The position numbers were made by a program, and so were the translations under genes. A stretch of DNA of 64,000 nucleotides from a virus (Duplodnaviria; Heunggongvirae; Uroviricota; Caudoviricetes). Shown piece by piece: positions 26,624 through 62,880 of the stretch (the first letter of the stretch is position 1; each line of letters begins with the position of its first letter). Under the pieces are notes generated by a model. It saw only the letters and a list, made by a program, of their open reading frames with translations, was not told the DNA's origin and ran no database searches. The stretch lies in the IMG/VR virus record IMGVR_UViG_642973540_000001, one strand, 5' to 3'.

Positions 26624-26648
26624 GGGGACTCTTCGGAGTCCTTTTTAT
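26624..26648 (+). terminator. rho-independent terminator GGGGACTC-TTCG-GAGTCC-TTTTT (family copy 1)
   Basis: perfect stem with UUCG tetraloop and T-run. Confidence 0.75.
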
Positions 26649-26707
26649 TATTGCTTTTTACAGATTGCATGAGATAATGAAATATTGACCATGCAGAGGA
26701 ATTTTAA

Positions 26708-28216
26708 ATGGCAACTTATAGACTCCAAGACTTGCCAGAATTCACAGGAACTATTTTAGGCACTGACCTTGTTCTTGTAAAGATTCTGGCAAGAGATAGC
26801 ACAGGGACAGATACTGATGCTAAGATGACGGTCACAAACTTCCTGAAAGGTGTCAGCTTCGATACTTCGAAATTCGTTTTGAAGGGTGGAGACATCTTTG
26901 CAGGTGATATGACCATGAATAACACAGTCACCCTGAAAGGTCTTATGACAGGCTCGAAAGGTGCTGTAGGAATCGCTGTAATCAACGCTAACGACCAGTT
27001 GGTATTAGGTGATGATAAGGTTCCACTTGTACTGAAGTCTCTTGAGAACCCCGCATATTTGCGCTCAGACGGTACTCAGTTTTACCTGTACCACACAGGG
27101 AATAAACCTAACGCTACAGATGTTGGTGCAGTACCGACAACAAGAACAATTAACGGTCATGCCATGAATGCAAACGTTACATTGTCTGCATCTGATTTGG
27201 AAGGTATCGACCTGTATGTTCTCAAGTCTGCTGGATATACCAGAGTTAGCGGTGTTATGCAAGAAACTCTGACAATGAAAAACAACAGCTACTTAGCTGC
27301 TAAAAAGGCAGATGGAAGTGCTTCTGTTAATATCGTCAAAGTCAATGCTAACGATAACTTGGAAATCGGACAGTCAGATGCTTTCATGCTTCTGTACAGC
27401 AACGCTGATATTCAGGCTCAAATCAAAGGTTATAACCAGACTCTGCTTCACGATGGTAACTTCAGAACTTACATTAACCCTAATGAAAAACTGAAAGCGT
27501 ATATCCAGATGCAAGTGTTCGACACCGCAGGGACTTATACCATCACACCGGACTCACTGTCAACAGTGTTGAAGTTCCGTGTTGAGGGTGCTAATAAGTA
27601 CGACTTTGACGTTTCTCTGTCAAACATTACTGGTCACTACCAGACTGCTTCGATTGCGAACACCTCAAGTTATGGTAGCATTACTGTGACGGAAGGGGAA
27701 GAGTCAAACATCCTTGATGACAGAACAGGTAACGTTGTTAAAGCGGTTATTGCAAATGACGATGCAGGTTTCATCATCGGATTCTGGAACGAAACTTCTA
27801 AGAAGTCTCAATTCAAATCTATTGCTTACCGTGCAGATGGTGACTTTAACGCACGTGTGGAAGATAACGATGGTTGGTTGTGGTGGTGGATGCTGGACAA
27901 CACAAGCGGTGCATGGGTCAATAAGACCATCAATGCAAGTGATGCCACACTTTCAGGTTACCAACCTAATCATGGTGATACAGAGACCAGACCAACTGCA
28001 CCAAACTTCACAGATGGTGTCTCACAGATTAACATTCTGTTTGACAATAGCTCTGACACCAACTTAACCTTCTCTTACTACTGTGTCAACACATTGCCAC
28101 CAAAAGACGCTACAAAAATTGAAGTGGTTATTGGTGAGAACGGGTCAGTCTCTGCTAACTCTGACGTTACAGGCCGTATTGACCGTATCGTTGTTGAAGA
28201 ATTTGGAAGAATCTAA
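26708..28216 (+). CDS. tail fibre protein
   Basis: 502 aa; N-terminus ATYRLQDL similar to next gene; C-terminal domain shared with the gene at 28960. Confidence 0.65.
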   Translation: MATYRLQDLPEFTGTILGTDLVLVKILARDSTGTDTDAKMTVTNFLKGVSFDTSKFVLKGGDIFAGDMTMNNTVTLKGLMTGSKGAVGIAVINANDQLVLGDDKVPLVLKSLENPAYLRSDGTQFYLYHTGNKPNATDVGAVPTTRTINGHAMNANVTLSASDLEGIDLYVLKSAGYTRVSGVMQETLTMKNNSYLAAKKADGSASVNIVKVNANDNLEIGQSDAFMLLYSNADIQAQIKGYNQTLLHDGNFRTYINPNEKLKAYIQMQVFDTAGTYTITPDSLSTVLKFRVEGANKYDFDVSLSNITGHYQTASIANTSSYGSITVTEGEESNILDDRTGNVVKAVIANDDAGFIIGFWNETSKKSQFKSIAYRADGDFNARVEDNDGWLWWWMLDNTSGAWVNKTINASDATLSGYQPNHGDTETRPTAPNFTDGVSQINILFDNSSDTNLTFSYYCVNTLPPKDATKIEVVIGENGSVSANSDVTGRIDRIVVEEFGRI

Positions 28217-28225
28217 GGAATATCA

Positions 28226-28960
28226 ATGGCTACAACAAGTTACAGAATTCAAGACTTGAAGCAGTACACTGGTTCATTGTCTACCTCTGACTTCTTGTTA
28301 GTCAAGATTAAGAAGCGTACAGGTATGATTGGAGATGAGGATATGAAAATCTCCATGAACCTGTTCCTTGACCAACTCGCACAGGGATTCTTCCCTATTA
28401 CTGGTGGGGTTCTGAAAGGGAACCTCACTATTGCGAATGGCTATCTTCTTTCTCTTGCTGACAAGAATGACGTTGCAGTTTCTATCGGTAGCTTCACATC
28501 CGACAACAGGCTTCAGCTTGGTAACATCAACCGTGGTCTGACTCTGGTAACAATCTCAGATGTCCAGATTAAACGTGGTGCAAACAGCTATGAAGTTTAC
28601 CATGCAGGTAACCTGCCAAACGTCACAAAGATTGACAGCTACTACAACGCTGGATTTGTAGGGACGAGCCACTCAATCAACATGGGTCAGTACACAGATT
28701 ACCAGATGACTTTACAGAATCCAACAACTGCGTTAGACTTCTCTTCAGGCTTTGTTAAAAGGGCTGTTGAGACAATCACAATGTTGATTACTCAGGGTTC
28801 TGGTTCAAACAAAGTCACGTGGCCTGACAACATCAAATGGGCTAACGGTTATCCACCAACTCTTTCTTATAAAGCTGGTAAGACCGACATTATCACATTC
28901 ATCTCCTATGATTTGGGTGCGACTTGGTTAGGTCTTATGACAGCCGCTGGAGTAAGTTAA
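28226..28960 (+). CDS. tail fibre/adaptor protein
   Basis: 244 aa; N-terminus ATTSYRIQDL paralogous to 26708 gene. Confidence 0.6.
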   Translation: MATTSYRIQDLKQYTGSLSTSDFLLVKIKKRTGMIGDEDMKISMNLFLDQLAQGFFPITGGVLKGNLTIANGYLLSLADKNDVAVSIGSFTSDNRLQLGNINRGLTLVTISDVQIKRGANSYEVYHAGNLPNVTKIDSYYNAGFVGTSHSINMGQYTDYQMTLQNPTTALDFSSGFVKRAVETITMLITQGSGSNKVTWPDNIKWANGYPPTLSYKAGKTDIITFISYDLGATWLGLMTAAGVS

Positions 28961-32433: not shown

Positions 32434-32484
32434 TGGTGGTTGACATATCGTTAATCTAGTGCTACCTTGTTAAATGACGGAACA

Positions 32485-32516: not shown

Positions 32517-32543
32517 TTATTGGTCAACAAAGAGGTAACGGTA

Positions 32544-33094: not shown

Positions 33095-33122
33095 AGGCTC
33101 CTTTTTACGGGAGCCTTTTTTG
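33095..33122. terminator. bidirectional terminator AGGCTCC-tttttac-GGGAGCCT-TTTTTT between convergent operons
   Basis: 7-bp stem, T-run on plus and A-run before. Confidence 0.75.
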
Positions 33123-36282: not shown

Positions 36283-36305
36283 AATAAAAGGACTCCGAAG
36301 AGTCC
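36283..36305 (-). terminator. minus-strand terminator GGACTC-TTCG-GAGTCC-TTTTATTT (family copy 2)
   Basis: reverse-complement of the conserved terminator, 7 nt downstream of 36312 gene. Confidence 0.7.
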
Positions 36306-36311
36306 ATTGGT

Positions 36312-36521
36312 TTATTTTAAGAATGCTTTAATCAGTTGGTAGAGAAAGACTACCATGAAACCTGATGCAAGACCCTCAATGATACCGAAGAAGATAATAA
36401 TGGTATCTGAAGCGAAACGCAACGGTCTTTTTGCAGCAAACTGTAAAAGTTTAAAACTATCGACTGCCAACCAGATAATACCGATTGCGATAGTTAGGCA
36501 GACCAAAATAGAACTAAGCAT
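36312..36521 (-). CDS. small membrane protein (69 aa)
   Basis: two hydrophobic helices; ORF track. Confidence 0.45.
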   Translation of the reverse strand: MLSSILVCLTIAIGIIWLAVDSFKLLQFAAKRPLRFASDTIIIFFGIIEGLASGFMVVFLYQLIKAFLK

Positions 36522-37782
36522 TTGAATCCTTTTGAATTTGTAAGTAACGAGTCAGTATTTTACCGACCTTTTCAACGTTTGATTTGTGAATCAACTGCTT
36601 CTTAGTCTGAATATTGTCAGTTTCTTTGATAGCCTCAACCACCTCTGGAGAGAGCTTTCTTGTTTGACTGACAGCTTCAGCAAGCATGTTCATCTGAAGA
36701 TACGGGACTTTCTGTAGTCTCGCGTTGGCATCAGAAACACACGTCATACAAAGCGCATTCACGATAGCTTGGTTATTGAACTGGTTATGTTCCTCTAACC
36801 ATAGCGCAAGTCGATTAGCGCGACGTACAAACATACCATGAACACGATGATGTTGCTCTGCACAGAACTGAGTAGCGACCCTGACAGACTTTGGAGCACC
36901 GATTCTCTCAACGAATGACAGTAGGTCTCTAACATCAGATTCGTGTCCATGAAGATTTCCACGCTCCGATAGAGTAAGTCTTTTACCCATGTCGTGACAT
37001 AAGATGCACAGGGACTGAGTGACCCTATCACCACTATTCCATCCATATTGCGGTAACTCCACTTCTTCGTAATGTTTCAATGCGAGAACGGTATGGTTCA
37101 GCACATCACCTTCAGGGTGGTATTTCTTAGGCTGTCTTACACCCTTCATTCCTGAGATTTCAGGGAACAAATTGAACTTACCACAAAGGCTAACAAACTT
37201 CCAGAAGTTTTCAGCAGATGCTGCTTTCTCAATCTCTTTCCAGATACGCTCTTTCGGGAGATGAGCAAGACAGTTAGCCTCAATCATTTGACGGAACAGT
37301 GCTTTCGTTTCAGGCTCAATGAACAGGTTATGACGTGCAGCGAATCTTAAACCTCTTAGAATTCGGAGAGGGTCTTCTTTAAAGCGGTCTGCATCAACCA
37401 CACGAAGGATTCTGTGTGCCAAGTCGTAACGGCTCATTGGATGAGCACAAATCAACTCATCAGTGTTTGCACCACCATTCACCACAGCAGATGCACAAGC
37501 ATTGATAGTGAAGTCACGACGAAGTAAATCCTCATCAAGTGTGACACCATCAGTCTCAACTTCGAAGTCGTTGTAACCTTCACCTGTTGAGTTCTCACGA
37601 CGAGCCATAGCAATCTCTGTACCGTCATCGGTGATGAATACAGGGAAAGCCTTTCCAACCTTTTTCAGTCCCAAATCAAGAAGCTGTTCTTCAGTGGCAT
37701 TAACGACCACAAAATCGTGGTCTGATGACGCTTTACCGAAGACTGCATCCCTGATTGAACCACCAACCAAGAAGAAGTCCAT
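36514..37782 (-). CDS. cca: tRNA nucleotidyltransferase (CCA-adding enzyme) with HD domain
   Basis: GGSIRD...DHDF head-domain motifs, HDMGK HD motif; start at MDFF (37782) 5 nt after upstream stop with GAGG SD. Confidence 0.8.
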   Translation of the reverse strand: MDFFLVGGSIRDAVFGKASSDHDFVVVNATEEQLLDLGLKKVGKAFPVFITDDGTEIAMARRENSTGEGYNDFEVETDGVTLDEDLLRRDFTINACASAVVNGGANTDELICAHPMSRYDLAHRILRVVDADRFKEDPLRILRGLRFAARHNLFIEPETKALFRQMIEANCLAHLPKERIWKEIEKAASAENFWKFVSLCGKFNLFPEISGMKGVRQPKKYHPEGDVLNHTVLALKHYEEVELPQYGWNSGDRVTQSLCILCHDMGKRLTLSERGNLHGHESDVRDLLSFVERIGAPKSVRVATQFCAEQHHRVHGMFVRRANRLALWLEEHNQFNNQAIVNALCMTCVSDANARLQKVPYLQMNMLAEAVSQTRKLSPEVVEAIKETDNIQTKKQLIHKSNVEKVGKILTRYLQIQKDSNA

Positions 37783-38213: not shown

Positions 38214-38239
38214 ATAAAAAAGGACTCCGAAGAGTCCCT
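38214..38239 (-). terminator. minus-strand terminator AAGGGACTC-TTCG-GAGTCCTT-TTTTTTATT (family copy 3)
   Basis: perfect stem, UUCG loop, T7 on minus. Confidence 0.7.
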
Positions 38240-38246
38240 TTATAAA

Positions 38247-39125
38247 TTACTGATTCTGTTGGGCTTTAATCAAGGCTGACATGTCGATAATCTGACCTTG
38301 CTGTTGACCCTGAACAAGGGGAAGATTGCCGCTCCACTTCTCTACCAGACGCAGTTGAATAACTGTCGGGTTCTGACGGAGAGCTTCACCCTGAATACGG
38401 ATTGCTTCAGCTTCACCTTGTGCTTTCAGGATTGCAGCGTCTTTTTCACCCTGTGCAGCATTCTTACGAGCATCGGCAGTTTGAACCGCAGTCAGTGCAG
38501 CTTGCTTCTGACGCTCTGTATGCTGCTGTTCAGAAATCTTCTGGTTCATCGACTCAACAACAGCTTTTGGTGGTAATGGGCTGCTTGTGAAGTAAATGTT
38601 CTCGATGATGATACCATACGGTGCAACCTGATTTGCAACGTCTGCTTTCACATCAATCAGAAGCTGAGTCTTACCAGAGCCGTACAACTCTTCAACGCTC
38701 AACTTAGAAGCATGACGGATAAATGCGTCACGAATCATGTTGTGCAGGTAGTTGTCCGTAATCTCATCAATACCCTGACGGTATTTCTGGAACAGGTCAA
38801 CAGCCTTGTTCGGGTCTACATGGTAAGCCAGACCAACGTTCACAGTCCACTCATCACCACCCTCTGAAGGTTGGATTTTGAAAGCCTGTGCGCCAGACCA
38901 TTCTTTGTTCTGAGTCGTTGTTGGGAACAGATACAGGTCATGACCCCAAGCAGTGAATTTCCAACCAAGACCGACACGCTGGATAGAATCCTTATCAGTG
39001 TCAGAGCCAGTTGTTTTCACGTACACACCGACATTGCCGGGAGTGACTTTGTTACAAGCGGTCAGTGACGTTGCACCGATAACCATTGCAGCAGCGATTA
39101 CGATATTCTTGAGCAGCTTTTTCAT
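38247..39125 (-). CDS. SPFH/band-7 (HflK/C-like) domain lipoprotein
   Basis: lipoprotein signal MKKLLKNIVIAAAMVIGATSLTAC; SPFH core and Ala/Gln-rich coiled coil KAQGEAEAIRIQGEAL. Confidence 0.75.
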   Translation of the reverse strand: MKKLLKNIVIAAAMVIGATSLTACNKVTPGNVGVYVKTTGSDTDKDSIQRVGLGWKFTAWGHDLYLFPTTTQNKEWSGAQAFKIQPSEGGDEWTVNVGLAYHVDPNKAVDLFQKYRQGIDEITDNYLHNMIRDAFIRHASKLSVEELYGSGKTQLLIDVKADVANQVAPYGIIIENIYFTSSPLPPKAVVESMNQKISEQQHTERQKQAALTAVQTADARKNAAQGEKDAAILKAQGEAEAIRIQGEALRQNPTVIQLRLVEKWSGNLPLVQGQQQGQIIDMSALIKAQQNQ

Positions 39126-39127
39126 TT

Positions 39128-43630: not shown

Positions 43631-44107
43631 TTACCCATGACAAGCAAACTCACCGTGCAACTCTACACGACGAGTTCTAACAGCCGCTTCAGCAGCCTTT
43701 TTAGAGGTGTGATAACCACAGCCATACGTTTTACCAAACACCGTAACTCTGGCTCTCCAGCGTCCGGTTGACTCATCGTAAGAGACACCCTTGACACCTG
43801 ACTTGCTATCTGACCGAAGGGATGTGTTCCAACTGTTCATTGCACAGGTGGCCTCTCTAAGATTTCTCCAGCGGTTGTCATGCCTCTTGTGATTTTTATG
43901 GTCAATTATCTTTATCGGGTAATTTCCAGTGACGTAGTACCATGCCAGCAAGTGAGCACGATAAGTCTTACTGTTCACCTTGATTTGGATATATCCCGTT
44001 TTAGATAAATGTCCAGCAACCTCACCAGTTGACTTCCAAATGAATTCACCAGTTGATTTACGATATTTTAATAAACTCTTTAGTTCTGAATGAGTTAATT
44101 CACACAT
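43631..44107 (-). CDS. HNH homing endonuclease with AP2 DNA-binding domain
   Basis: HNH core ...AHLLAWYY...IDHKNHKRHDNRWRNL; AP2-like GVSYDESTGRWRARV..YGCGYHTSKKAAEAA. Confidence 0.8.
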   Translation of the reverse strand: MCELTHSELKSLLKYRKSTGEFIWKSTGEVAGHLSKTGYIQIKVNSKTYRAHLLAWYYVTGNYPIKIIDHKNHKRHDNRWRNLREATCAMNSWNTSLRSDSKSGVKGVSYDESTGRWRARVTVFGKTYGCGYHTSKKAAEAAVRTRRVELHGEFACHG

Positions 44108-46220: not shown

Positions 46221-46243
46221 AGCCCCTTAATTGGGGCTTTTTA
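46221..46243 (+). terminator. terminator AGCCCC-ttaatt-GGGGCT-TTTTT
   Basis: perfect 6-bp stem + T5. Confidence 0.65.
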
Positions 46244-46262
46244 GCCTACAAGGAAAATAACA

Positions 46263-50189: not shown

Positions 50190-51263
50190 ATGGCTTTAAC
50201 CGATGCTGAGAAGCATAATAAATTCACCCTTTCAAAAATTCCTGCTACTGTAAAGCTGGCCTACTTTGACTCTGACCCAATCGCCTATCGTGGTGCATTT
50301 GCTGTAGAGAAGACTAAGTATCGCTTTACCAACTCAGAGACCTTTGAAGAGTCTCCCCCATTCCTGAGTGCCAAAGATGCTAAGTCTTGGCTTGATGGTC
50401 AGCAAGACATCGCAGAGTCAATCGGTATCGAGTTCCGCAAACAAGATTGGGTTCGCTATGACTGGAAAGAACCTCTCTCAGTCGAAGAGGCAATCAAGGC
50501 TACACAGGACGTTCTTCAGGCTTATATCAAGGCTTCTGGTGTCCATGAAGATGACTGGATGGGCTTCTTGACCCAACGTGGTGTTGAGAAAACGAAAGAC
50601 TTGCCGGGACTTGAACACCAATATCAAGGTAACCGCTCAGGGTTTACACCAACCCATCTTGACGCAACTCGTCAGCATCTTATTGACAAGTCACAGATGC
50701 ACTTACTGTCTGATGGATTTGAGGCTGATGCCGCTGTAATCGCAATGGGTGAACGTAAAGGTAAACGTGCAGTTATCCTGTCACTTGATAAAGATTTACG
50801 TCAGTTGATGGGTGGTTACATGCTTGACATGTCCTATGACAAAGCCCCTCTCATCTTCAACACAGTTGATAACCCTCTTGGTGATGTCTGGCGATGTCCT
50901 ATCAAGTCAAAGCCTAAGCAGCCCCCTAAGTATGTTGGTTGTGGCTTCAAATGGCTTTGCTATCAGGCATTAGCTGGTGACCCTTCAGATGGTTACTACG
51001 GTATCTCTGGAGTTGGTGGTGCAGCGATTATCAAACTTCTTGATGAGTGTGAAACAATTCACCAGTGCTTAGACGCAATCTATGCCCTCTACAAGAAGAA
51101 GTTCCCTGAAGGGTACACTTACACCTCTTGGGACGGTACAGAGCAGCACAGGACTCCTGAAGAGCTTATGACGCAGCATTTCATGTTACCTTATCAGGAA
51201 CGCAGCATGGATGATGTATTCTCCTTTGAAAAATATGGTTGGAGTTTTAATATGAATGGATAA
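50190..51263 (+). CDS. flap endonuclease / 5'-3' exonuclease (T5 D15 / T4 RNase H family)
   Basis: GFEADAAVIA and ILSLDKDLRQL motifs, H3TH GISGVGGAAI; ATG 50190 with AAGAGGAA SD (track start 50145 lies inside terminator). Confidence 0.8.
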   Translation: MALTDAEKHNKFTLSKIPATVKLAYFDSDPIAYRGAFAVEKTKYRFTNSETFEESPPFLSAKDAKSWLDGQQDIAESIGIEFRKQDWVRYDWKEPLSVEEAIKATQDVLQAYIKASGVHEDDWMGFLTQRGVEKTKDLPGLEHQYQGNRSGFTPTHLDATRQHLIDKSQMHLLSDGFEADAAVIAMGERKGKRAVILSLDKDLRQLMGGYMLDMSYDKAPLIFNTVDNPLGDVWRCPIKSKPKQPPKYVGCGFKWLCYQALAGDPSDGYYGISGVGGAAIIKLLDECETIHQCLDAIYALYKKKFPEGYTYTSWDGTEQHRTPEELMTQHFMLPYQERSMDDVFSFEKYGWSFNMNG

Positions 51264-51771
51264 GCTACCCCGTTACGGTCATTGGGTGTCTCTCTGCGGA
51301 GAGATTAACCCTGAGAAACTTTTCGGTTTCGTCTATGTCGTCTACAACAAGGCGCATAACAGATTTTACATCGGAAAGAAACAATTCTTTTCAGTTACTA
51401 AGAAAAAAATTGTTGGAAAAGTCAGAAGAAAGACTTGCATCAAGGATTCAGATTGGCTAAGATACTTAACATCTTCTGAGTACGTTAAGAAGGATATTGA
51501 AGAGCTTGGAAAAGATAACTTCGAGTTCTTTATCATCGAAACGTATGAAACGAAGTCAGGGTTAGTATACGCTGAAGCGAACCTTCAACATAAGTTTGAT
51601 GTGATGCAAAAAGCTGTTGACTCTGATGTTCGAAAGTTTTACAATGCAAATGTTGCTGCTATCAAGTTCCTCGTAAAAGAGATTAAACCTGTAGCAGCTA
51701 AAAGAATCAAACAACTCATTGAATATAAAGAGGCTCAACATGTTCGCAATTCTGAAAAAACTGTTCTCTGA
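51256..51771 (+). CDS. GIY-YIG homing endonuclease
   Basis: FVYVVYNKAHNRFYIGKK GIY-YIG core; basic C-terminal DNA-binding region. Confidence 0.7.
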   Translation: MDKLPRYGHWVSLCGEINPEKLFGFVYVVYNKAHNRFYIGKKQFFSVTKKKIVGKVRRKTCIKDSDWLRYLTSSEYVKKDIEELGKDNFEFFIIETYETKSGLVYAEANLQHKFDVMQKAVDSDVRKFYNANVAAIKFLVKEIKPVAAKRIKQLIEYKEAQHVRNSEKTVL

Positions 51772-52066: not shown

Positions 52067-52813
52067 ATGTATGTAACTACTAAAAATCCTGTCCATCTTT
52101 GGAACATCCGTGCTGGTCTGAATGCTGCAAAGCGTTACTCACCTGAATACTGGAAAGCATTAGAGAATCAGGCTGAACGAATGATGGAAGAGTTGAAAGA
52201 GACTATCCAAGCTATTCGTGAGCGTGATGCGTTGGGTCTGATTGACGGTCAGGTTGACATGGACTTCGTTCTGCAAGGTTTCACTTACCTTTCGCAGTTT
52301 GACCATGAAGCAGCACTGAACCGTGTATGTGACAATAACGATTTGAAAATCACGACTGATGCTGGTACAGCACTTCGTTGGTTGGATGAGCATTCTGAAA
52401 AAGACCCTCAGACTGCATACGAAATTGTCTCAACAGAAGTTAATGGTGTTACTCATTACAGCGTTCACCGCTTGAGTGACAACAAGGTGATTAAGCCTCT
52501 TAACCATCCTACAGTAACACTGTACGACTTGGTAGCAGGTAACACCGAAATCTTTGTAGCGTCTAAAGAGTCATGCACTCAGTGCAAGTCTATCATCAAG
52601 ACACTGGAAGACCTCGGTTATGTATTCACCGTTCTTGACCTTGACAACTCAGAAGCAGATAAAGAGTTTGCTGATGAAGTTGGTATTGACATCGGCTGTG
52701 TAGCGTTCTTTAACGGCGAGTCTGTCTCAAAGATTTCAGTTGGTTCAGGTCATGATAAAGAGTTTGTAAGTAACTGGTTGAAAGGGGTAGGTGCTAATGG
52801 AAAAGCTGATTGA
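52067..52813 (+). CDS. putative MazG-like NTP pyrophosphohydrolase fused to glutaredoxin-like C-terminal domain (CTQC)
   Basis: N-terminal EE-rich helices; C-terminus IFVASKESCTQCKSIIKTLEDLGY thioredoxin-fold motif. Confidence 0.4.
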   Translation: MYVTTKNPVHLWNIRAGLNAAKRYSPEYWKALENQAERMMEELKETIQAIRERDALGLIDGQVDMDFVLQGFTYLSQFDHEAALNRVCDNNDLKITTDAGTALRWLDEHSEKDPQTAYEIVSTEVNGVTHYSVHRLSDNKVIKPLNHPTVTLYDLVAGNTEIFVASKESCTQCKSIIKTLEDLGYVFTVLDLDNSEADKEFADEVGIDIGCVAFFNGESVSKISVGSGHDKEFVSNWLKGVGANGKAD

Positions 52814-53335: not shown

Positions 53336-53341
53336 TCTCAA

Positions 53342-53364
53342 GGGACTCTTCGGAGTCCTTTTTA
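53342..53364 (+). terminator. terminator GGGACTC-TTCG-GAGTCC-TTTTT (family copy 4)
   Basis: exact repeat. Confidence 0.8.
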
Positions 53365-53379: not shown

Positions 53380-53472
53380 ATGAATAAAACAATCCTCGCT
53401 GTAATGGTTCCCCTCCTGATTCAATATCAGATTCTTAGCAACAAATTCAAAGCACAACTTGAGGCAAAATAA
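53380..53472 (+). CDS. 30-aa hydrophobic leader-type mini-ORF overlapping nrdA start (TAATG)
   Basis: ATG 53380 ... TAA 53470-72; no clear SD. Confidence 0.25.
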   Translation: MNKTILAVMVPLLIQYQILSNKFKAQLEAK

Positions 53473-55706
53473 TGATTCGTAATGTAAAGAAATCCGATGG
53501 TACTGTACAACCTTTTGACCCGTCACGTCTGAACCGTTGGGCTGAGTGGGCTGCTAACTATGGTGTTGATTGGTCTGAAATTGCTGTAGATGCTGTTAAG
53601 CGTTGTCATGACGGCTGTACAACCTCTGACCTTCAGTGGGCTATGATTGAAGCGTGTATCGACCGTCAGACTCAGGCTCATGCGAACATGGCTGGTCGTC
53701 TTCTGATTGGTAACGTCTACAAAGAAGCCTTTGGTGGTTTCCGTAAGATTCCAACTCTCACAGACTTCTACGACAAAATGCGTACTCTGAACCTGTGGGA
53801 AGACATGGGCTACTCAGATTCTGAGTTGGACTATCTCGGACTTCAAATCAACCACTACAAAGACCTGAATTACGGTTATGCAGTTGTTAAACAGTTCCGT
53901 GACAAATACGCTATCAAGGATGCCTTGACCAAACGTGTTTATGAATCACCACAGTTTATGTTCATGGGTATGGCTCTGGCAGTGATGCAGAATCAGCCAA
54001 AGGACAGACGTATTCAGGATGTTATCAAGCTGTATGAATATCTGTCTGACCTGAAGATTAACGCACCGACTCCTTACCTGAACGGCCTCCGTTCTAAGAA
54101 GAGTGGCTATGCCTCATGCTGTGTGATTAAGGGTGACGACACCGCAGAGTCAATCGGTATTGCTGAACACATTGCCTACACCATGACTTGTAAGCAAGCT
54201 GGTATCGGTATTCTGTTGCAGACTCGCTCTAAAGGTGATGGTGTCCGTAACAAGACGATTGTTCATCAGGGTAAGACTCCTTACTTTGCTTGCATTAACA
54301 CGGCTGTCAAGGCTAACAAGCAACAGACACGTGGTGGTTCTGCAACAGTTGGCTACACCATTCTTGACCCTGAGATTGATGACCTGCTGCGACTCAACAA
54401 CCCTGTGACACCTCCACAGAAACAGTTGAAGTTCATGGACTATCAGGTTGGTATCAATGAGTCATTCCTTCGTCGCGTTGATAAAGATGATGAATGGATG
54501 CTGGTATCATTCAAAGATGCACCTGAACTGCACAAGCGTATGTACGGCTCTTATGAGTTGTTCGAGGTTGAGTATGACCGTGTGATGCGCAATCCAGACA
54601 TCAAGAAGAAGATGGTCAGTGCTCGTAAGCTGAGTAAAGTCTTCCTGAAAAACCGTTATGAAACTGGTCGTGTCTATCCGTTCTTCACCGATAACATGAA
54701 CACTCATACACCGTTTGAAGATACTATCTGGAACTCAAACCTGTGCATGGAAATCTGTCTGCCTACAAAGGCGTTTAAGAGCATGGCAGAACTTTATAAC
54801 CCATCGGTCAAGGCTGAAGGTGAAATCGCTCTGTGCTTCCTCTCAAGCATCGTAGCGGGGCGTGTCAAACCGGAAGAGTATGAAGAAGTTGCTTACTACA
54901 CACTTCTGATGATTGACAACGTAATGGACATCATGGAATATCCTTATGAAGCACTGAAGAAGTCGGCTCAGTATCGTCGTTCAGTCGGTGTCGGTATCAC
55001 CAACCTTGCTCACTATCTGGCAAGTAACTTTACCAACTACTCTTCTCCGAAGGGTAAGCGTATGATGCACAACTTAGCAGAGCTTCACAGCTATTCGCTT
55101 CACCGTGCAAGTCTGCGTCTGGCTAAAGAACGTGGTGTTTGTGAAGGTATGGAAGTGTCGAAGTATCGCAATGGCTGGACTCCACTTGAAGATTACTCTC
55201 AAGAGGTTGACAACATTGTTGACTCAACTCTTCAGTTTGATTGGCTCCAGCTTCACAAGGACATCAAAGCTAACGGTGGTATTCGTCACAGTGTGCTTGA
55301 AGCGTTCATGCCTAATGAGAGTTCTTCTCTGGCAACGAACACGACGAACGGTCTGTACCCTGTACGTGAACTGAAGATGTTCAAGAAGTCTCCACAAGGC
55401 TCTGTCTTCTTCCTTGCACCAGACTCTGAAGTGATTGGTGATGTCTATCAGTCAGCTTGGGATGTACCAGAGAAGGATATGATTGAGTGTTACGCAATCT
55501 TCCAGAAGTTCACTGGTCAGGCAATCTCTGCTGATTTCTATATGGACTATCACAAAACTGGTAATAAGGTTTCTGCCAAGACTGCACTGAAGAGCTTGAT
55601 TTACGCTCACAGGCTTGGTATGAAGACCCAATACTACATGAACAGTCGTGTTGGTGTTGGTGAATCTTCACTGAAAGAAATGGCTTGCGAAGGCTGTTCA
55701 CTTTAA
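53472..55706 (+). CDS. nrdA: ribonucleotide reductase class Ia alpha subunit
   Basis: N-terminal ATP-cone, 744 aa, RNR catalytic core. Confidence 0.92.
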   Translation: MIRNVKKSDGTVQPFDPSRLNRWAEWAANYGVDWSEIAVDAVKRCHDGCTTSDLQWAMIEACIDRQTQAHANMAGRLLIGNVYKEAFGGFRKIPTLTDFYDKMRTLNLWEDMGYSDSELDYLGLQINHYKDLNYGYAVVKQFRDKYAIKDALTKRVYESPQFMFMGMALAVMQNQPKDRRIQDVIKLYEYLSDLKINAPTPYLNGLRSKKSGYASCCVIKGDDTAESIGIAEHIAYTMTCKQAGIGILLQTRSKGDGVRNKTIVHQGKTPYFACINTAVKANKQQTRGGSATVGYTILDPEIDDLLRLNNPVTPPQKQLKFMDYQVGINESFLRRVDKDDEWMLVSFKDAPELHKRMYGSYELFEVEYDRVMRNPDIKKKMVSARKLSKVFLKNRYETGRVYPFFTDNMNTHTPFEDTIWNSNLCMEICLPTKAFKSMAELYNPSVKAEGEIALCFLSSIVAGRVKPEEYEEVAYYTLLMIDNVMDIMEYPYEALKKSAQYRRSVGVGITNLAHYLASNFTNYSSPKGKRMMHNLAELHSYSLHRASLRLAKERGVCEGMEVSKYRNGWTPLEDYSQEVDNIVDSTLQFDWLQLHKDIKANGGIRHSVLEAFMPNESSSLATNTTNGLYPVRELKMFKKSPQGSVFFLAPDSEVIGDVYQSAWDVPEKDMIECYAIFQKFTGQAISADFYMDYHKTGNKVSAKTALKSLIYAHRLGMKTQYYMNSRVGVGESSLKEMACEGCSL

Positions 55707-57106: not shown

Positions 57107-57124
57107 TCTTTCTCAGAGGTGTGA

Positions 57125-57621: not shown

Positions 57622-57629
57622 CAACTCAA

Positions 57630-57652
57630 GGGACTCTTCGGAGTCCTTTTTT
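57630..57652 (+). terminator. terminator GGGACTC-TTCG-GAGTCC-TTTTTT (family copy 5)
   Basis: exact repeat. Confidence 0.8.
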
Positions 57653-57704
57653 ATTATATAAAACAGTAACTTAGAAATTAATTCAAAAACTTTTAAAATA
57701 GTTG

Positions 57705-57733
57705 TTGACCACCATAACCGATTTCTATACTAT
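57705..57733 (+). promoter_or_regulatory. sigma70-like promoter TTGACC-N17-TACTAT
   Basis: hexamers 50 nt upstream of 57785 gene. Confidence 0.45.
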
Positions 57734-57784
57734 TACTCACGTCAACAAGACATACGAAAATATAAACATTAAGGAAACCGAGAA

Positions 57785-58894: not shown

Positions 58895-58912
58895 TCTGTA
58901 ACTAATCCAATC

Positions 58913-58935
58913 GGGACTCTTCGGAGTCCCTTTTT
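58913..58935 (+). terminator. terminator GGGACTC-TTCG-GAGTCCC-TTTTT (family copy 6)
   Basis: exact repeat. Confidence 0.8.
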
Positions 58936-58942
58936 ATTTGAG

Positions 58943-59209
58943 GTGTCTATGTCTCGTCAGTATCTGTTTTACAAACCACGTCAAAGTCTGTACTATGTAA
59001 TGTCAGGTGACGCCAAAATCAAAGGTGATGATGGTGAATGGCACAACGGTAAAGTCTATGTTGCAATTGATGGTTGCCAGTGCTATTGTCGTCCTGACAG
59101 TATGTTCGAAGAAGACAAATGGGAGTTTCTGACACATGAACAAGCAAGAGATTACTACCGTCGATATTACGGAGACCTCAACACCCCACGTGGTTCAAAT
59201 ATCATTTAA
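58943..59209 (+). CDS. hypothetical Cys-containing protein (88 aa)
   Basis: ORF track; overlapping alternative ORF 59136..59327 not resolved. Confidence 0.45.
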   Translation: MSMSRQYLFYKPRQSLYYVMSGDAKIKGDDGEWHNGKVYVAIDGCQCYCRPDSMFEEDKWEFLTHEQARDYYRRYYGDLNTPRGSNII

Positions 59210-59336
59210 GGGTGAAACGTGGTTTGAATATCTGGATGAGATGCGGGAAAGAACCTACATCAAGTTTGATTCAGAGAGTTCAGCACGAAGAGGTTTAAGA
59301 ATCTATTGCAATTCTCTCGCAGGTTAGTTAGTATGA

Positions 59337-59359
59337 GGACTCTTAATTGAGTCCTTTTT
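59337..59359 (+). terminator. terminator variant GGACTC-TTAATT-GAGTCC-TTTTT
   Basis: same stem as family, different loop. Confidence 0.7.
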
Positions 59360-59375
59360 CATTTCTGGAGATTGT

Positions 59376-59888
59376 ATGTACTCAGAAGCTGTAGCAGTAA
59401 TCATGACAGTTGTCAACCTTGACTTTCAAGACCGTGAAGACTTTCTGTTCAGTCATAAGTATGACCGTCAGAACTCTAACTGGATGAAACTGAACCACGA
59501 AGGGTTGACACGCAAAAAGATTATTGCACGTTACTTCCCACACTACACAGTTGACAATCTCTACGAACACTGCTTCTTCAAAAACTTCATCACAGTCATC
59601 AATGAAGAGTTTGGTTTAGAGAAGAATCACCAGTTCACTTTAGGTCATCACATCCCATTGAACAAGGGTGGTGCTCACCATGTAAGCAACTGGTTTATCC
59701 AGACGAAGAAGGATAACCAGATTCAGGGTGATAACTTACCAGACTGTCCACTGATGAGCTATGACGAACAAATTGATTACCTGTTCAATCATCTGTTGAA
59801 TCACTCAACAATCAACGGTATGCACAGTGAGAGGTTCATCAAGTACGCTTTAAAATACTCAGGAGTTTACAATGAAAGCAGTCTATAA
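59376..59888 (+). CDS. HNH endonuclease
   Basis: HHIPLNKGGAHHVSNWFIQTKKDN HNH motif. Confidence 0.7.
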   Translation: MYSEAVAVIMTVVNLDFQDREDFLFSHKYDRQNSNWMKLNHEGLTRKKIIARYFPHYTVDNLYEHCFFKNFITVINEEFGLEKNHQFTLGHHIPLNKGGAHHVSNWFIQTKKDNQIQGDNLPDCPLMSYDEQIDYLFNHLLNHSTINGMHSERFIKYALKYSGVYNESSL

Positions 59889-60168
59889 CTTTGTCTGTAA
59901 AGTCAATCCGTGGTGGTTCTTCAACAAAGAAGACCTGTCACCGAAACGCTGTCCAGATTGTCTGTCCAAAAGTTTTTACAGTGTTGCAAAAGACGTGTCA
60001 GATTATCTTCTTTTAGAAGCAGAATACCGTTGCAACTGTTGTGATAGTGTCGTACAGTATTGGTCATACGGGAACTTTGACCCCGCTTACCTTCCTCCGA
60101 AAGGACGTGAAGAACATCGTCAAAGACAAAATGAAATGATAACATTTGGAGAAGTCCCACATGATTAG
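59872..60168 (+). CDS. zinc-ribbon protein (CPDC...CNCC)
   Basis: two Cys pairs. Confidence 0.5.
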   Translation: MKAVYNFVCKVNPWWFFNKEDLSPKRCPDCLSKSFYSVAKDVSDYLLLEAEYRCNCCDSVVQYWSYGNFDPAYLPPKGREEHRQRQNEMITFGEVPHD

Positions 60169-61006
60169 TTTAGCTGTGAACCATCAGAACGTAGCTGTAT
60201 CACGAACCGTCTTCCCTGCTGGAGAGGTTGGAGTCAGCCTTGATGTTATGGGTCTGAAGAAAGCCTTGAACGGTAGCAATACGATTGAGGTTGCAATCCA
60301 CACTCAGGGTTATGAGCCGAACATGCTTATCACCATCATGCAGATTAAAGAGGCACTGAATCAGTTCTTCTTACCTTACATGGTGAAGCCTCGTTACATC
60401 CTCATGCTGGCCTACATGCCGTTCTCTCGCTATGACCGTCACATGTATCGCGGTGATGCTTTCGGTCTGAAGGTCTTTGCTCAGGTTATCAACAGCATGA
60501 ACTTTGACATGGTTGTTACTCTGGATGCACACAGTGACGTGACAGCCGCTGTAATCAACAACCTGTACAACATCCCTCAAGTGGATGCACTGATGACTCA
60601 CCGTTTCTTACGCGACTATGATGTAGTTGTCGCACCAGATGCAGGTGCAGAGAAGAAAGCAACCGCTGCTGCAAAAGCTATGCAGTGTGAGTTAGCGACT
60701 CTGGTCAAACATCGTAACGTGATGACTGGCGAAATCACTGGTATGGGTCTGTCAACTGGTATTGTCAAGAATCAGAATTGCCTGATTGTAGATGATTTGT
60801 GTGATGGTGGTGCTACGTTTGTACACGCTGCTGCAAAACTTTTCACTCTCGGTGCAAAATCTGTTGACTTGTATGTGACTCACGGAGTATTCTCTAAGGG
60901 TACTGAAGTTCTGCGAAATGCAGGGATTGAGAACATTTACACCACGAACTCCTTCGAACAGGAAGGTAACGGTGTCAACTTTGTCGGCTACGGCTCACTT
61001 ATTTAA
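60161..61006 (+). CDS. prs: ribose-phosphate pyrophosphokinase-like enzyme (Prs/ADPR-PP synthetase family)
   Basis: DAHSD and PRPP-binding LIVDDLCDGGATF motifs; ATG 60161 with GGAGAAG SD. Confidence 0.85.
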   Translation: MISLAVNHQNVAVSRTVFPAGEVGVSLDVMGLKKALNGSNTIEVAIHTQGYEPNMLITIMQIKEALNQFFLPYMVKPRYILMLAYMPFSRYDRHMYRGDAFGLKVFAQVINSMNFDMVVTLDAHSDVTAAVINNLYNIPQVDALMTHRFLRDYDVVVAPDAGAEKKATAAAKAMQCELATLVKHRNVMTGEITGMGLSTGIVKNQNCLIVDDLCDGGATFVHAAAKLFTLGAKSVDLYVTHGVFSKGTEVLRNAGIENIYTTNSFEQEGNGVNFVGYGSLI

Positions 61007-61019
61007 TAGGAAACTGAAC

Positions 61020-62849
61020 ATGAACAATACACTGATTGCCACCCTGATTTGCGATGCGTACAAGTCCGGTCATAAATTCCAATACCCTGCGGGGCTGGAT
61101 TCACTGTTCCTGAACATTACTCCACGTAATGCTAAGTATTTCCCAGGCGGCACAGACGTTGTTGCGAACTTCGGTTCAACTGCTTTCCGTGACACTTGGC
61201 TGGTCAAGTTCTGGAACGAGCATTTCTTTGACCTTCCAAAAGATGTTGTCATGGAAATTCATGAGATGTACATGGACGGTGTACTTGGTAAAGGTACTCT
61301 GACACATGACCACATCGCAGCACTGCATGACTTAGGCTACCTGCCAATCATTGTTCGTGCTTTACCGGAAGGGACTGTATCACCTGTCAAGGTTCCTGTG
61401 ATGACCATTGAAACGACTCACAAAGACTTTGCATGGGTTGGTGGTTACCTTGAAGACCTGTTCAGTTCTAACCTGTGGAAGGTTATGACCATTGCAACCA
61501 TCGCAATGAAGTATCGTGTTCTTCTGGAGCGTTTCGCTGAAGAAACTGGTGTTGATAAAGGCTTCGTTGATTATCAGGCTCATGACTTTGCCCTTCGTGG
61601 TATGTCAGGTGTTCATGATGACATTCAGCACAACATCGGTCATCTGGCATTCTTCAAAGGGACTGACTCATTCCCTGCGACTTGGGCTATCAAGCAGTTT
61701 TATGGTGATGTCAAGGTTAGTGACATTGCAGGTTCTGTTCCAGCAACTGAACACAGCGTTACCTGTGCAAACATTGCTGTTGAAGCAAGTCAAATGGTTC
61801 TGGCATCTGGTGAGTTAGGTGATGGTAATCCACAGTCGAAAGCAGCACTGCTGGCTAAAGCGGAACAGAATTTCTTCCACCGTCTGCTGACTGAGGTCTA
61901 TCCAACTGGTATTCTGTCAGTAGTTGGTGACACTAACAACTGGTATGATACAGTGACTACCAAAGTACGTGAATTGAAAGATGTCATCATGAAGCGTGAA
62001 GGTAAACTGGTTCTCCGTCCTGACTCTGGTATTCCAGAGCATATCGTGGCAGGTTACCGCTGCATCGAGATTGAGAACGCTAAGGCTGTCATTGCTGAAG
62101 AGTACAAGTCAGGCCGTCTTGGTTGGGCTTCAGTTCTGGAAAGCAACCTTGCTGACATCAAAGAGTTGACCATTGATAAGTTGACTGCAAATGATTGTCA
62201 GATTATCAAAAACGCTGGCTTTGAAGTGGTGGTCGATGCTGAAGACTTTGACGGTGCATACTGTGTCTTCCTTGATGAGAAGATTGCAAAACCATCTGTC
62301 AAGGTTGGTCGCTACGTTCAGATTGAGGTTCTGGAAGGTGCTGTAGAATCTCTGTGGAAAATCTTTGGTGGTGATGTCACAACTAAAGGCTACAAGGTTC
62401 TGGATGAGCATATCGGCCTGATTTACGGTGACTCAATCACTCTGGAACGTGCAGGGAACATCTTGCAACGACTGAAAGAGCGTGGATTCGCAAGCTGTAA
62501 CGTTGTGTTCGGTGTAGGTTCATTCACTTACCAGATGATTACACGTGACTCTCTCAGCTTTGCTATCAAGGCGACTGTGGCGACTGTGGACGGTATCAAC
62601 TACCCACTGTCAAAAGACCCAATCACCGATGACGGCACTAAGAAGTCTGCAACTGGTTACATCATCGTTCGTGATACCGGAACAGGTGAACCGCTGCACA
62701 TGGTTGATGGTCTGAGTCGTCAAGCATACGACAACCTGAACCAGCAAGGTTTGAATGAACTCCGTGTGATTTTTGCAGACGGTGAGTCAATCAACTACGA
62801 TGAGAACATTCTCACAATCCGTGACAAGTTCTTGAAAAACATGAAGTAA
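61020..62849 (+). CDS. nadV: nicotinamide phosphoribosyltransferase-like enzyme (NAMPT/NadV family)
   Basis: 609 aa, NAMPT-family sequence from MNNTLIATLICDAYKSGH; 14 nt after prs-like stop. Confidence 0.85.
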   Translation: MNNTLIATLICDAYKSGHKFQYPAGLDSLFLNITPRNAKYFPGGTDVVANFGSTAFRDTWLVKFWNEHFFDLPKDVVMEIHEMYMDGVLGKGTLTHDHIAALHDLGYLPIIVRALPEGTVSPVKVPVMTIETTHKDFAWVGGYLEDLFSSNLWKVMTIATIAMKYRVLLERFAEETGVDKGFVDYQAHDFALRGMSGVHDDIQHNIGHLAFFKGTDSFPATWAIKQFYGDVKVSDIAGSVPATEHSVTCANIAVEASQMVLASGELGDGNPQSKAALLAKAEQNFFHRLLTEVYPTGILSVVGDTNNWYDTVTTKVRELKDVIMKREGKLVLRPDSGIPEHIVAGYRCIEIENAKAVIAEEYKSGRLGWASVLESNLADIKELTIDKLTANDCQIIKNAGFEVVVDAEDFDGAYCVFLDEKIAKPSVKVGRYVQIEVLEGAVESLWKIFGGDVTTKGYKVLDEHIGLIYGDSITLERAGNILQRLKERGFASCNVVFGVGSFTYQMITRDSLSFAIKATVATVDGINYPLSKDPITDDGTKKSATGYIIVRDTGTGEPLHMVDGLSRQAYDNLNQQGLNELRVIFADGESINYDENILTIRDKFLKNMK

Positions 62850-62857
62850 TTTACAAA

Positions 62858-62880
62858 GGGACTCTTCGGAGTCCTTTTTT
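62858..62880 (+). terminator. terminator GGGACTC-TTCG-GAGTCC-TTTTTT (family copy 7)
   Basis: exact repeat. Confidence 0.8.

Follow-up and report, generated by a model that had tools for sequence, protein, structure and literature searches.

A putative intrinsic terminator hairpin reused at twelve sites of Erwinia phage phiEa21-4 and kept constant across Kolesnikvirus

Our analysis suggests that a single hairpin repeated through the genome of Erwinia phage phiEa21-4 (Kolesnikvirus) is a Rho-independent (intrinsic) terminator, a single standard element present 12 times and once more as a variant, whose sequence is kept constant throughout the genus; we put the probability of this reading at roughly 0.8. 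The DNA analysed, a stretch of 64,000 nucleotides referred to below as the window, is part of this phage genome (84,576 bp in full). The 16-mer core of the hairpin, GGACTCTTCGGAGTCC, has seven exact matches in the window, five on the plus strand and two on the minus strand, against an expected count of 0, with no match in any of 100 dinucleotide-preserving shuffles. A search at 3 mismatches added a single match, at 9036, which is unrelated. The whole genome holds 12 exact copies and one loop variant, and the core is the most repeated of all its 16-mers. A sequence-only reading of the same DNA had described seven identical UUCG-tetraloop hairpins on both strands and one loop variant at 59337, and both descriptions hold, the variant being present as GGACTC-TTAATT-GAGTCC. 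Its strand calls were right, since the TTCG loop and T-run lie on the coding strand every time, and its coordinates agree with ours when one or two flanking bases (in minus-strand copies, the A-run) are counted in. The other window terminators that it had called unrelated (5775, 32484, 33095, 46221, 50138 and 52020) exist, and their stems are unrelated.

The repeated terminator of phiEa21-4 is already known and annotated in GenBank: in EU710883/NC_011811, 11 of the 12 exact copies are labelled "regulatory: terminator", and the exact copy at 58914 and the loop variant at 59337 carry no annotation. The abstract of Lehman et al. 2009 reportedly describes a rho-independent terminator of exactly conserved sequence scattered over this genome, and its copy number is said to be 24, compared with the 12 exact copies and one variant counted here; 24 would equal 12 copies counted on both strands. 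What is new here is that the sequence is frozen across Kolesnikvirus far past the needs of terminator structure, that its positions predate it, and that the phage encodes a FinO-domain protein of the class that binds such 3' ends.

Table 1. Copies of the repeated hairpin and the gp115 gene. Positions are those of the window unless marked as record positions.
Feature	Position	Core and T-run	Strand	Annotation or match
Copy after tail-fibre gene gp69	26623..26647	26626-26641, then T5	+	EU710883 "terminator"
Copy, intra-operon	36284..36308	36290-36305, then T4	-	annotated terminator
Copy after gp81 (SPFH domain)	38216..38240	38222-38237, then T6	-	
Copy between gp102 and downstream nrdA	53340..53364	start 53343	+	
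Copy after gp107	57628..57652	start 57631	+	
Copy after gp108, 7-bp stem GGGACTC/GAGTCCC	58911..58935	start 58914	+	
Loop variant after gp110, stem GGACTC/GAGTCC, TTAATT loop	59334..59360		+	
Copy after nadV	62856..62880	start 62859	+	
gp115, 153-aa ProQ/FinO-domain protein	62961..63422		+	Pfam PF04352
Three copies upstream of the window	record 3921, 6675, 7944		+	exact match
Two copies upstream of the window	record 18803, 19327		-	exact match

The element consists of a 6-7-bp stem with 4-5 G-C pairs, a 4-nt loop and a run of T4-6. In the RNA, a 6-bp GGACUC/GAGUCC stem ends in a C(UUCG)G tetraloop, and A-U and G-U pairs contributed by the A-rich 5' flank lengthen the stem by 2-4 pairs, to 9-10 pairs. 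The UUCG loop is closed by a C-G pair in 12 of the 13 copies, and the remaining copy, the variant, has a TTAATT hexaloop. The 5' flanks start with TAA and continue as A-rich linkers, mostly ending in AG; likeness between copies ends after the hairpin and T-run, and about 23 nt are shared. The core has a predicted free energy of -8.7 kcal/mol and the extended hairpin one of -12.8 kcal/mol, at the weak end of the range predicted for phiEa21-4 terminators (-11 to -20), which is consistent with partial termination. An efficient terminator would be expected to have a stem longer than 6 bp, which counts against the terminator reading.

All 13 copies, the variant included, are co-oriented with their gene and start 5-12 nt past its stop codon, and a run of four to six T follows. 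This arrangement identifies them as probable intrinsic terminators, as the sequence-only reading had proposed; anatomy, orientation and the GenBank labels all support that proposal. Eight of the 13 are followed by the next ATG within 19-26 nt, and their T-run leads straight into the next ribosome-binding site. The copy at 36290 begins 6 nt past the stop of a 69-aa ORF (36312-36521) that has no annotation in EU710883, and it is intra-operon because the ATG of the DNA ligase gene lies only 24 nt downstream; the copy at 58914 is intra-operon for the same reason (next ATG 19 nt downstream), and the variant has its next ATG after 21 nt. The other five stand before gaps of 66-138 nt that hold sigma70-like promoter sites, and these sites are not alike among themselves. 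Within the window they lie at 26657-26686 behind the copy at 26626 (next start codon 66 nt downstream), at 38201-38173 behind 38222 (TTGACC-17-TACATT), at 57705-57733 behind 57631, upstream of gp108 (TTGACC-17-TACTAT), and at 62891-62920 behind 62859, leading into the ProQ/FinO gene (TTGACA-18-TAAAGT).

We propose a model for how these elements may work. Host RNA polymerase would read them as Rho-independent terminators, and the five copies with a sigma70-like promoter next would end transcription units. The eight intra-operon copies run into the next ribosome-binding site and so would have to be leaky, acting as attenuators that let a fraction of polymerases pass. Because the hairpin starts only 5-12 nt past the stop codon, a terminating ribosome should cover its 5' arm, and termination efficiency may thus be gated by how tightly translation trails transcription. 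According to PMC4824070, the translating ribosome strongly represses a terminator placed a few bp after a gene. The hairpin may also block 3'-exonucleases, in terminated and in processed transcripts alike. The sequences directly show anatomy, orientation, placement and conservation; termination, read-through, ribosome gating and the role in RNA stability are what we infer from them. A literature search for Term-seq or RNA-seq data on Kolesnikvirus found none. Generic terminator function leaves unexplained the 12-fold reuse of the same 16 nt, given the varied stems of relatives, and also why the variant retains the stem with an altered loop.

Phage M7, about 88% identical to phiEa21-4 over the genome, shares all 13 sites letter for letter, the variant among them. 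In one comparison of the two phages, 0 of 210 nt differ in the hairpins, 2 of 78 in the first 6 nt of their tails and 12-14% in the flanks; in another, 0 of 212 nt changed in the hairpins, compared with 12 of 229 nt (5%) in the other strong terminators. Counted by hairpin, 0 of 13 copies and 8 of 12 other strong terminators are altered; the Fisher test of this family against the other terminators gives p = 0.004 and counts a T-tail insertion as one change in the family. In a survey of a 50,697-record phage collection, in which 60 of 974 matching records were listed, the element has 12 copies each in phiEa21-4, M7 and Coenus, all three Kolesnikvirus among the matches listed, and at most 4 in every other phage among them. 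Felix O1 and Moogle have terminators with other stems at several of the orthologous positions, for instance Felix O1 t111 (GAGCCTC-TTCG-GAGGCTC) and Moogle GGGGTCTC-TTCG-GAGACCC opposite the copy at 53343, and their largest family of identical terminators is 2 of 16-17; some of the positions have no terminator at all in other genera. These comparisons indicate unusually tight conservation of the sequence across Kolesnikvirus, beyond the demands of terminator structure, and place the positions as older than the sequence that now fills them. The earlier suggestion of recent spread is not supported, given the letter-perfect sites in M7, the 12 copies in Coenus and the differently sequenced orthologous terminators of Felix O1 and Moogle. 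Ordinary selection on terminator structure would not suffice for such constancy, which would need either purifying selection at the sequence level or homogenisation among copies. Selection for a specific RNA 3' end, as suggested before, is compatible with the numbers (0/212 against 12/229, with about 12% change in the flanks), and concerted evolution is an alternative to it.

The "ProQ-like protein" to which the sequence-only reading had pointed is real. gp115 matches Pfam PF04352 (ProQ/FinO) with 66.1 bits (cut-off 27, E 3.3e-18), its PDB sequence matches are RocC, FinO and ProQ, and its AlphaFold2 model has a pLDDT of 87.5. The top 26 Foldseek hits of this model in the PDB are all RocC, FinO, Lpp1663 or NMB1681 (probability 1.0 each; target-normalised TM-score up to 0.75). 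G39, Y68 and R78, the equivalents of RocC Gly52, Tyr87 and Arg97 in the 3'-end pocket, are invariant in an alignment of 25 relatives. Across the RNA-contact positions (RocC Gly52, Ser70 N-cap, Lys71, Arg75, Tyr87 and Arg97), gp115 has the conserved residues G39, T51, R52, Y68 and R78, and it carries Asn where RocC has Arg75. By predicted fold and pocket residues, gp115 is a genuine FinO-domain protein and a candidate for binding the terminator hairpin and U-tail in trans. A review notes that phage-encoded FinO-domain homologues exist (PMC9977716), and our literature search found no study of one from a lytic phage.

The gp115 gene next to one copy offers a possible lead on why the sequence is frozen. 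We consider it unlikely, however, that hairpin and U-tail are a dedicated gp115 binding site, that gp115 caps phage transcript 3' ends against 3'-exonucleases and polyadenylation or modulates termination, and that the sequence is frozen because gp115 tells this hairpin from host terminators. Terminator hairpins that end in a U-tail are known ligands of FinO domains (PMC9674577, PMC7367173); the 3' tail has at least 4 U, about 5 nt being preferred, and A-rich 5' flanks are enriched among the ligands of ProQ (PMC7367173). The repeated element has a hairpin base, a 3' U-tail of at least 4 nt (T4-6 here) and an A-rich 5' flank, the known determinants of binding (PMC7367173, PMC9674577), and in these it resembles the terminator ligands of the FinP/FinO and RocR/RocC systems and the 3'-UTR ligands of ProQ. 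The 3'-nucleotide pocket of gp115 is intact (PMC9674577). Its gene lies directly behind the copy at 62859 and a conserved promoter; the variant retains the stem, the part that FinO domains contact, and not the loop; and within Ounavirinae, FinO gene and uniform terminator occur together in Kolesnikvirus, with Felix O1 and Moogle lacking both. In PMC12086684, ProQ is described as inhibiting poly(A) polymerase and thereby preventing mRNA degradation. Against this, the FinO domain in the RocC-RocR structure touches the phosphate backbone and the 3' ribose but no bases, so an identical hairpin sequence is not required for FinO binding: known FinO-domain proteins recognise mostly backbone and shape rather than sequence. 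The Asn at the Arg75 position, the single evolutionary event behind the co-occurrence in Ounavirinae and the intra-operon copies, which would seldom be 3' ends, also weigh against it. A specific partnership is unproven because phages 7-11 and ECBP2 encode gp115 relatives and have no repeated or uniform terminator. We hold it quite improbable that Kolesnikvirus runs a private mRNA 3'-end system in which gp115 specifically recognises hairpin and U-tail, in which phage RNAs are marked for shielding from host 3'-exonucleases and poly(A) polymerase or read-through is tuned, and which is why 12 terminators are frozen genus-wide while relatives without the protein vary their stems. If gp115 and the hairpin are partners, they would offer a simple natural system (12 identical sites, one protein) for studying FinO-domain RNA specificity and a model for transcript protection or tuning in lytic phages.

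Homogenisation is a possible, if doubtful, source of the identity: gene conversion, or a short regulatory cassette that has spread and now flanks exchangeable gene modules in the manner of the PeSL promoter/terminator cassettes of T4-type phages, would then take the place of sequence selection. For a family that evolves as one unit, finding all 16 nt unchanged at roughly 12% divergence is unremarkable (0.88^16 is about 0.13). Copies stand where other genera have unrelated terminators or none, which implies replacement and gain, and they bracket lineage-specific genes (gp108 between 57631 and 58914; the gp79-gp80 block between 36290 and 38222). A precedent is documented (PMC2839356, PMC4122927) in the PeSLs (promoter-early stem-loops), dispersed and highly similar elements with a terminator stem-loop that flank variable genes, and the family shares with them the promoters behind 5 of 13 copies and a modest enrichment at mosaic boundaries: 9 of 13 junctions separate genes shared with Felix O1/Moogle from Kolesnikvirus-specific or rearranged ones, compared with 38 of 100 other junctions (odds ratio 3.7, p = 0.04). 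However, this enrichment is weak and partly expected for any terminator. PeSLs combine terminator and promoter with enough common sequence for homologous recombination, whereas likeness here stops after some 23 nt, with no common promoter or flank to drive exchange. PeSLs have also been seen next to indels that separate close relatives. None of the copies here coincides with an indel: the genomes of phiEa21-4 and M7 are collinear throughout, and the indel that sets Tian and others apart is a homing-endonuclease (HNH) gene located elsewhere. The copy number of 12 in three species-level lineages (among the matches listed) also speaks against spread. The family does not fit a PeSL-type cassette proper, given the missing composite promoter and the absence of copies at indel or gene-swap borders between the close relatives compared. 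The earlier idea that the copies serve as repeats for recombination fares no better, the phiEa21-4/M7 collinearity and the Tian indel giving no evidence of it. A REP/MITE-like mobile palindrome does not fit either, since every copy points the same way as its gene and the number is 12 in three lineages (among the matches listed); no transposase family was found among 40 phage proteins scanned. It is very improbable that the palindrome serves as a double-stranded DNA site for a nuclease, a methylase or a nicking or packaging factor, with its resemblance to a terminator being secondary. The stem does hold two inverted GAGTC (GANTC) motifs, and HNH and GIY-YIG endonucleases are among the proteins of the phage. 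A palindromic stem would serve in either orientation, yet the asymmetric loop and the T-run keep to the coding strand in every copy, each 5-12 nt past a stop codon; over the whole genome GAGTC occurs about as often as expected (198 observed, 184 expected), the half-site spacing differs in the variant, and the orthologous sites of relatives are ordinary terminators.

The terminator reading also has a precedent in phage T4, whose hyperstable C(UUCG)G hairpins act as terminators and mRNA 3' stabilisers. Tuerk et al. 1988 reportedly found them in intercistronic regions and terminators of that phage. The likeness lies in the UUCG tetraloop closed by C-G, the siting between genes and the U-run that often follows. 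Stems differ between sites in T4, Felix O1, Moogle, 7-11 and ECBP2, whereas stem, loop and closing pairs are identical at 12 sites of phiEa21-4. The element may represent a compact, moderately strong and naturally reused terminator part for Enterobacterales. T4-type phages carry near-identical hairpins, such as the one at T4 130332-130358, which matches the query at 25 of 27 positions.

Over its final 12 kb, the window matches Erwinia phage phiEa21-4 (EU710883 / NC_011811; Ounavirinae, Kolesnikvirus) at 100% identity, and as a whole it corresponds to record positions 20577-84576, so that subtracting 20576 from a record coordinate gives the window coordinate. The 16-mer GGACTCTTCGGAGTCC, which marks the house terminator (a letter-identical GGACTC-TTCG-GAGTCC hairpin with a T-run), has seven exact matches in the window, five on the plus and two on the minus strand, and none in 100 dinucleotide-preserving shuffles of the window. 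This confirms the sequence-only reading, which had described seven identical TTCG terminators on both strands. A three-mismatch search of the window added only one site, which is unrelated. The loop variant, which keeps the house stem but has a TTAATT loop, is also present, and the other terminators named in that reading exist and are unrelated in sequence to the house hairpin, as it had stated. Further copies lie outside the window: over the complete phiEa21-4 genome, the count is 12 exact copies plus the variant (13 elements), and GGACTCTTCGGAGTCC is the most repeated 16-mer of this genome.

Features in the window, in window coordinates
Feature	Position	Strand	Remark
House terminator	26626	+	exact match
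House terminator	36290	-	exact match; intra-operon
House terminator	38222	-	exact match
House terminator	53343	+	exact match
House terminator	57631	+	exact match
House terminator	58914	+	exact match; intra-operon
Loop variant	59337	+	by sequence; intra-operon
House terminator	62859	+	exact match
Sigma70-like site	26657-26686	+	after house copy
Sigma70-like site	38201-38173	-	after house copy
Sigma70-like site	53446-53473	+	after house copy; weak
Sigma70-like site	57705-57733	+	after house copy
Sigma70-like site	62891-62920	+	after house copy
Promoter-like site	63923-63952	+	TTGACA-18-TAGAAT, 11/12
Other terminator	33095-33116	both	GGCTCC-TTTTTAC-GGGAGCC
Other terminator	46221-46244		AGCCCC-TTAATT-GGGGCT
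tRNA cluster	1247-4650	+	26 genes
69-aa ATG ORF	36312-36521	-	unannotated in EU710883
gp79	36514-37782	-	CCA-adding enzyme / poly(A) polymerase family (PF01743, PF12627)
gp81	38247-39125	-	SPFH/Band 7 domain
gp90	43631-44107	-	HNH endonuclease and AP2 DNA-binding domain
gp98	51256-51771	+	SegE-like GIY-YIG endonuclease domain
gp100	52067-52813	+	weak PRA-PH (MazG-like) and glutaredoxin matches
gp115	62961-63422		153 aa; ProQ/FinO

The house terminator is a genuine and clearly defined feature under strong conservation, yet it is already known. The GenBank record carries a 'regulatory: terminator' feature on 11 of the 12 exact copies, leaving the copy at 58914 and the variant unmarked. The abstract of Lehman et al. 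2009 (AEM 75:2139) reportedly presents the phage as the first in which one rho-independent terminator recurs across the genome in precisely conserved form, with a copy number said to be 24 versus the 12 counted here; 24 equals 12 on both strands. Five papers and reviews that cite the phiEa21-4 genome paper do not mention the terminators. New here are the freezing of the sequence across the genus to a degree that structure does not require, old terminator positions occupied by a lineage-specific sequence, and a FinO-domain protein, verified here, whose gene lies next to one house copy. As found, this is of moderate-to-low interest, which would rise if a protein-terminator partnership were demonstrated.

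In 13 of 13 elements, the TTCG loop and T-run are found on the coding strand of the neighbouring genes, the hairpin starting 5-12 nt after the stop codon and followed directly by T4-6. The bases 5' of the stem are A-rich and end in AG in most copies, and A-U and G-U pairing by this flank can lengthen the 6-bp stem to 9-10 pairs. ViennaRNA predicts -8.7 kcal/mol for the house core, falling to -12.8 when the stem is extended, compared with -11 to -20 for the other phiEa21-4 terminators and -12.0 for the GGCUCC-UUCG hairpin of Felix O1. By these energies, the house hairpin ranks among the weaker terminators of this phage and is thus not the most stable option available. By placement, the elements form two classes. 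In the intra-operon class (8/13), the stem lies 19-26 nt from the next start codon and the Shine-Dalgarno sequence abuts the T-run. No promoter fits into this space, and the genes downstream thus depend on read-through. In the unit-boundary class (5/13), a gap of 66-138 nt holds a sigma70-like site.

We propose that the house elements are intrinsic terminators of moderate strength reused as a standard part, in which the promoter-followed copies would act as full stops and the intra-operon copies as attenuators. By analogy, the hairpin should also shield upstream RNA from 3'-exonucleases; Tuerk et al. in 1988 reportedly proposed that CUUCGG hairpins stabilise T4 RNA in this way. Since the hairpin starts so close to the stop codon, a terminating ribosome should overlap its 5' arm. 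In a study of tR2, termination was nearly abolished when the terminator stood a few bp after a gene (PMC4824070), and the two together suggest translation-gated read-through. Termination, attenuation, gating and RNA stabilisation are all steps that we infer from sequence.

The genomes of phiEa21-4 and Kolesnikvirus M7 are collinear, with about 86-88% identity, and M7 carries all 13 elements letter-perfect, variant included. The house hairpins show 0/210 differences from M7 and the first 6 nt of the T-tail 2/78, against 27/195 (13.8%) in the 15 nt upstream and 62/520 (11.9%) downstream. A second script gave 0/212 differences with 0/13 hairpins changed, versus 12/229 (5.2%) with 8/12 changed for the other strong terminators as control (Fisher p = 0.004, a test that tallies an extra T at record 18803, in the tail and outside the hairpin, as a house change). 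At the ordinary-terminator rate, 0 changes in 212 nt has a probability of ~1e-5, which argues that the house copies are under extra constraint or are homogenised. When 50,697 phage records were searched by short-query BLAST, there were 12 places each in phiEa21-4, M7 and Coenus and at most 4 in every other record, mostly T4-type near-matches, among the 60 of 974 matching records listed.

Outside the genus, several of the orthologous sites in Felix O1 and Moogle also hold a terminator (those following the endolysin, nadV and tail-fibre genes, and those preceding nrdA and the gp111 and gp109 homologues), with stems unlike the house stem (PMC3185647 Table 2 for Felix O1): GGCTCC-TTCG-GGAGCC, GAGCCTC-TTCG-GAGGCTC, GGGGTCTC-TTCG-GAGACCC, GAGGCTCC-TACG-GGAGCC and GGGAAC-TGTAAAG-GTTCCC. 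Some house sites, such as the gp38/endolysin gap, hold no terminator in these two phages. One terminator finder, applied alike to every genome, gave 25 strong terminators with a largest identical family of 12 in phiEa21-4, 24 and 12 in M7, 17 and 2 in Felix O1, and 16 and 2 (two such families) in Moogle; phage 7-11 (14) and ECBP2 (16) had none repeated. The positions are thus old and the uniform sequence is Kolesnikvirus-specific, which leaves the suggested recent spread of identical copies unsupported. Almost all of the listed IMG/VR matches to the 16-mer were single-copy and in unrelated contigs, and a 21-mer scan of species genomes gave 28 matches, all single-copy, so no bacterial genome there uses the element repeatedly.

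Two side observations concern other hairpins. Besides the house variant (59337-59354), the TTAATT hexaloop occurs in the terminator at 46221 and in GCCTCC-TTAATT-GGGGGC of Felix O1 and Moogle, the rest of these hairpins being different. M7 and Felix O1 (t79/t80) share, letter for letter, the bidirectional terminator at 33095, which stands at the convergent junction of gp74 and thymidylate synthase, and Moogle has it almost unchanged; it is the sole terminator seen with cross-genus sequence conservation.

The identity of the copies could instead stem from concerted evolution or a cassette origin, which we regard as possible but doubtful. House junctions more often separate genes shared with Felix O1/Moogle from lineage-specific or rearranged ones (9/13) than other same-strand junctions do (38/100; odds ratio 3.7, p = 0.04), and copies flank lineage-specific genes on both sides (gp108; the gp79-gp80 block), an arrangement reminiscent of PeSL cassettes in T4-type phages (PMC2839356, PMC4122927). 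However, similarity between copies stops at the T-run and no copy has an indel between phiEa21-4 and M7; the indel of ~490 bp that Tian and others show lies between prs and nadV and is an HNH gene. With no rearrangement or indel at any copy, recombination at the house repeats, as the sequence-only reading had envisaged, was rejected. A recognition site at the DNA level, formed by the two inverted GAGTC motifs of the stem, is unlikely: GAGTC is about as frequent as expected (198 observed vs 184) and the element always follows the orientation of the gene, and the GAGTC/GANTC idea was dropped on these grounds.

The postulated ProQ-like protein does exist. In a Pfam scan of 40 poorly annotated window proteins, gp115, encoded 3' of the house copy at 62859, matched ProQ/FinO (PF04352, E 3.3e-18, 66 bits against a cut-off of 27). 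Its PDB sequence matches are RocC, FinO, ProQ and NMB1681, and FinO-domain structures were the only matches of an alignment-based AlphaFold2 model (pLDDT 87.5; a single-sequence model at pLDDT 40 was not used). In the RocC-RocR complex, Gly52, Tyr87 and Arg97 form the 3' nucleotide pocket and an N-cap helix (Ser70, Lys71, Arg75) grips the hairpin backbone (PMC9674577). G39, Y68 and R78 of gp115 are invariant among 25 relatives; in its N-cap, T51 and R52 are present, with Asn where RocC has Arg75. Several newer Kolesnikvirus records name the gene 'proQ' or 'ProQ/FINO family'. A word-indexed homologue search returned near-identical proteins only. By tblastn against GenBank phages, relatives turned up in all Kolesnikvirus records, the Salmonella 7-11 group, phiEco32-like coliphages, Aeromonas LAh phages and Shewanella KASIA, and none in Felixounavirus, Mooglevirus or Suspvirus. 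A gp115-family profile likewise found none in six-frame ORFs of Felix O1 and Moogle (best E 0.8-1.3; positive controls 1e-35 to 1e-54). In phage 7-11, two ORFs match this profile, strongly (E 4e-54) and weakly (E 9e-7), and the main homologue, of 234 aa, has an additional C-terminal region.

FinO domains require a hairpin base and at least 4 U, favouring ~5-nt tails, and A-rich 5' flanks are usual in ProQ ligands (PMC7367173); the house element has all these features. Within Ounavirinae, the protein and the uniform terminator also co-occur, since Kolesnikvirus has both and Felix O1/Moogle lack gp115 relatives. It is tempting to regard gp115 as the specific partner that explains the uniformity. 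However, known FinO contacts are to the backbone rather than to bases, and 7-11 and ECBP2 encode a FinO protein without a repeated terminator; a general link between a FinO gene and terminator uniformity in phages was rejected on this ground. Binding of the house terminator by gp115 is plausible from these sequence features; specificity is unproven, and we consider a specific partnership improbable.

Felix O1 and Moogle lack gp79, which has house terminators on both sides. It adds a second RNA 3'-end enzyme to a phage that also encodes the FinO protein and 26 tRNA genes; the tRNA genes scored above the Rfam gathering threshold, and an Rfam scan of the window returned tRNAs only. The 69-aa ORF fills the space that separates gp79 from the DNA ligase gene, and its end lies 6 nt before the house copy at 36290; no Pfam family matches it, and M7 has coding-looking sequence at the corresponding position. 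The Pfam assignments of gp81, gp90, gp98 and gp100 go beyond the original annotation. At the window end, upstream of rIIA in the permuted genome, the -35 hexamer of the strong promoter-like site lies within the 18-nt palindrome TTGACAGTTAGCTGTCAA. A single copy of the house terminator, flanks included (AAAAGGGACTCTTCGGAGTCCTTTTTTATTT), is present in a 747-kb contig of E. amylovora CEB_12 (JBNONK010000001; L163 4025-4045). It lies directly 3' of a tape-measure-like gene of 694 aa, which over 560 bp shares 82% identity with the tape measure of Kolesnikvirus; this may be a divergent relative or prophage-like element. In the sister genus, Citrobacter phage Moogle carries eight copies of a 16-mer unrelated to the house element, AATCCTAAACTGGAGA, which ends in a Shine-Dalgarno-like GGAGA and represents a different dispersed regulatory repeat.
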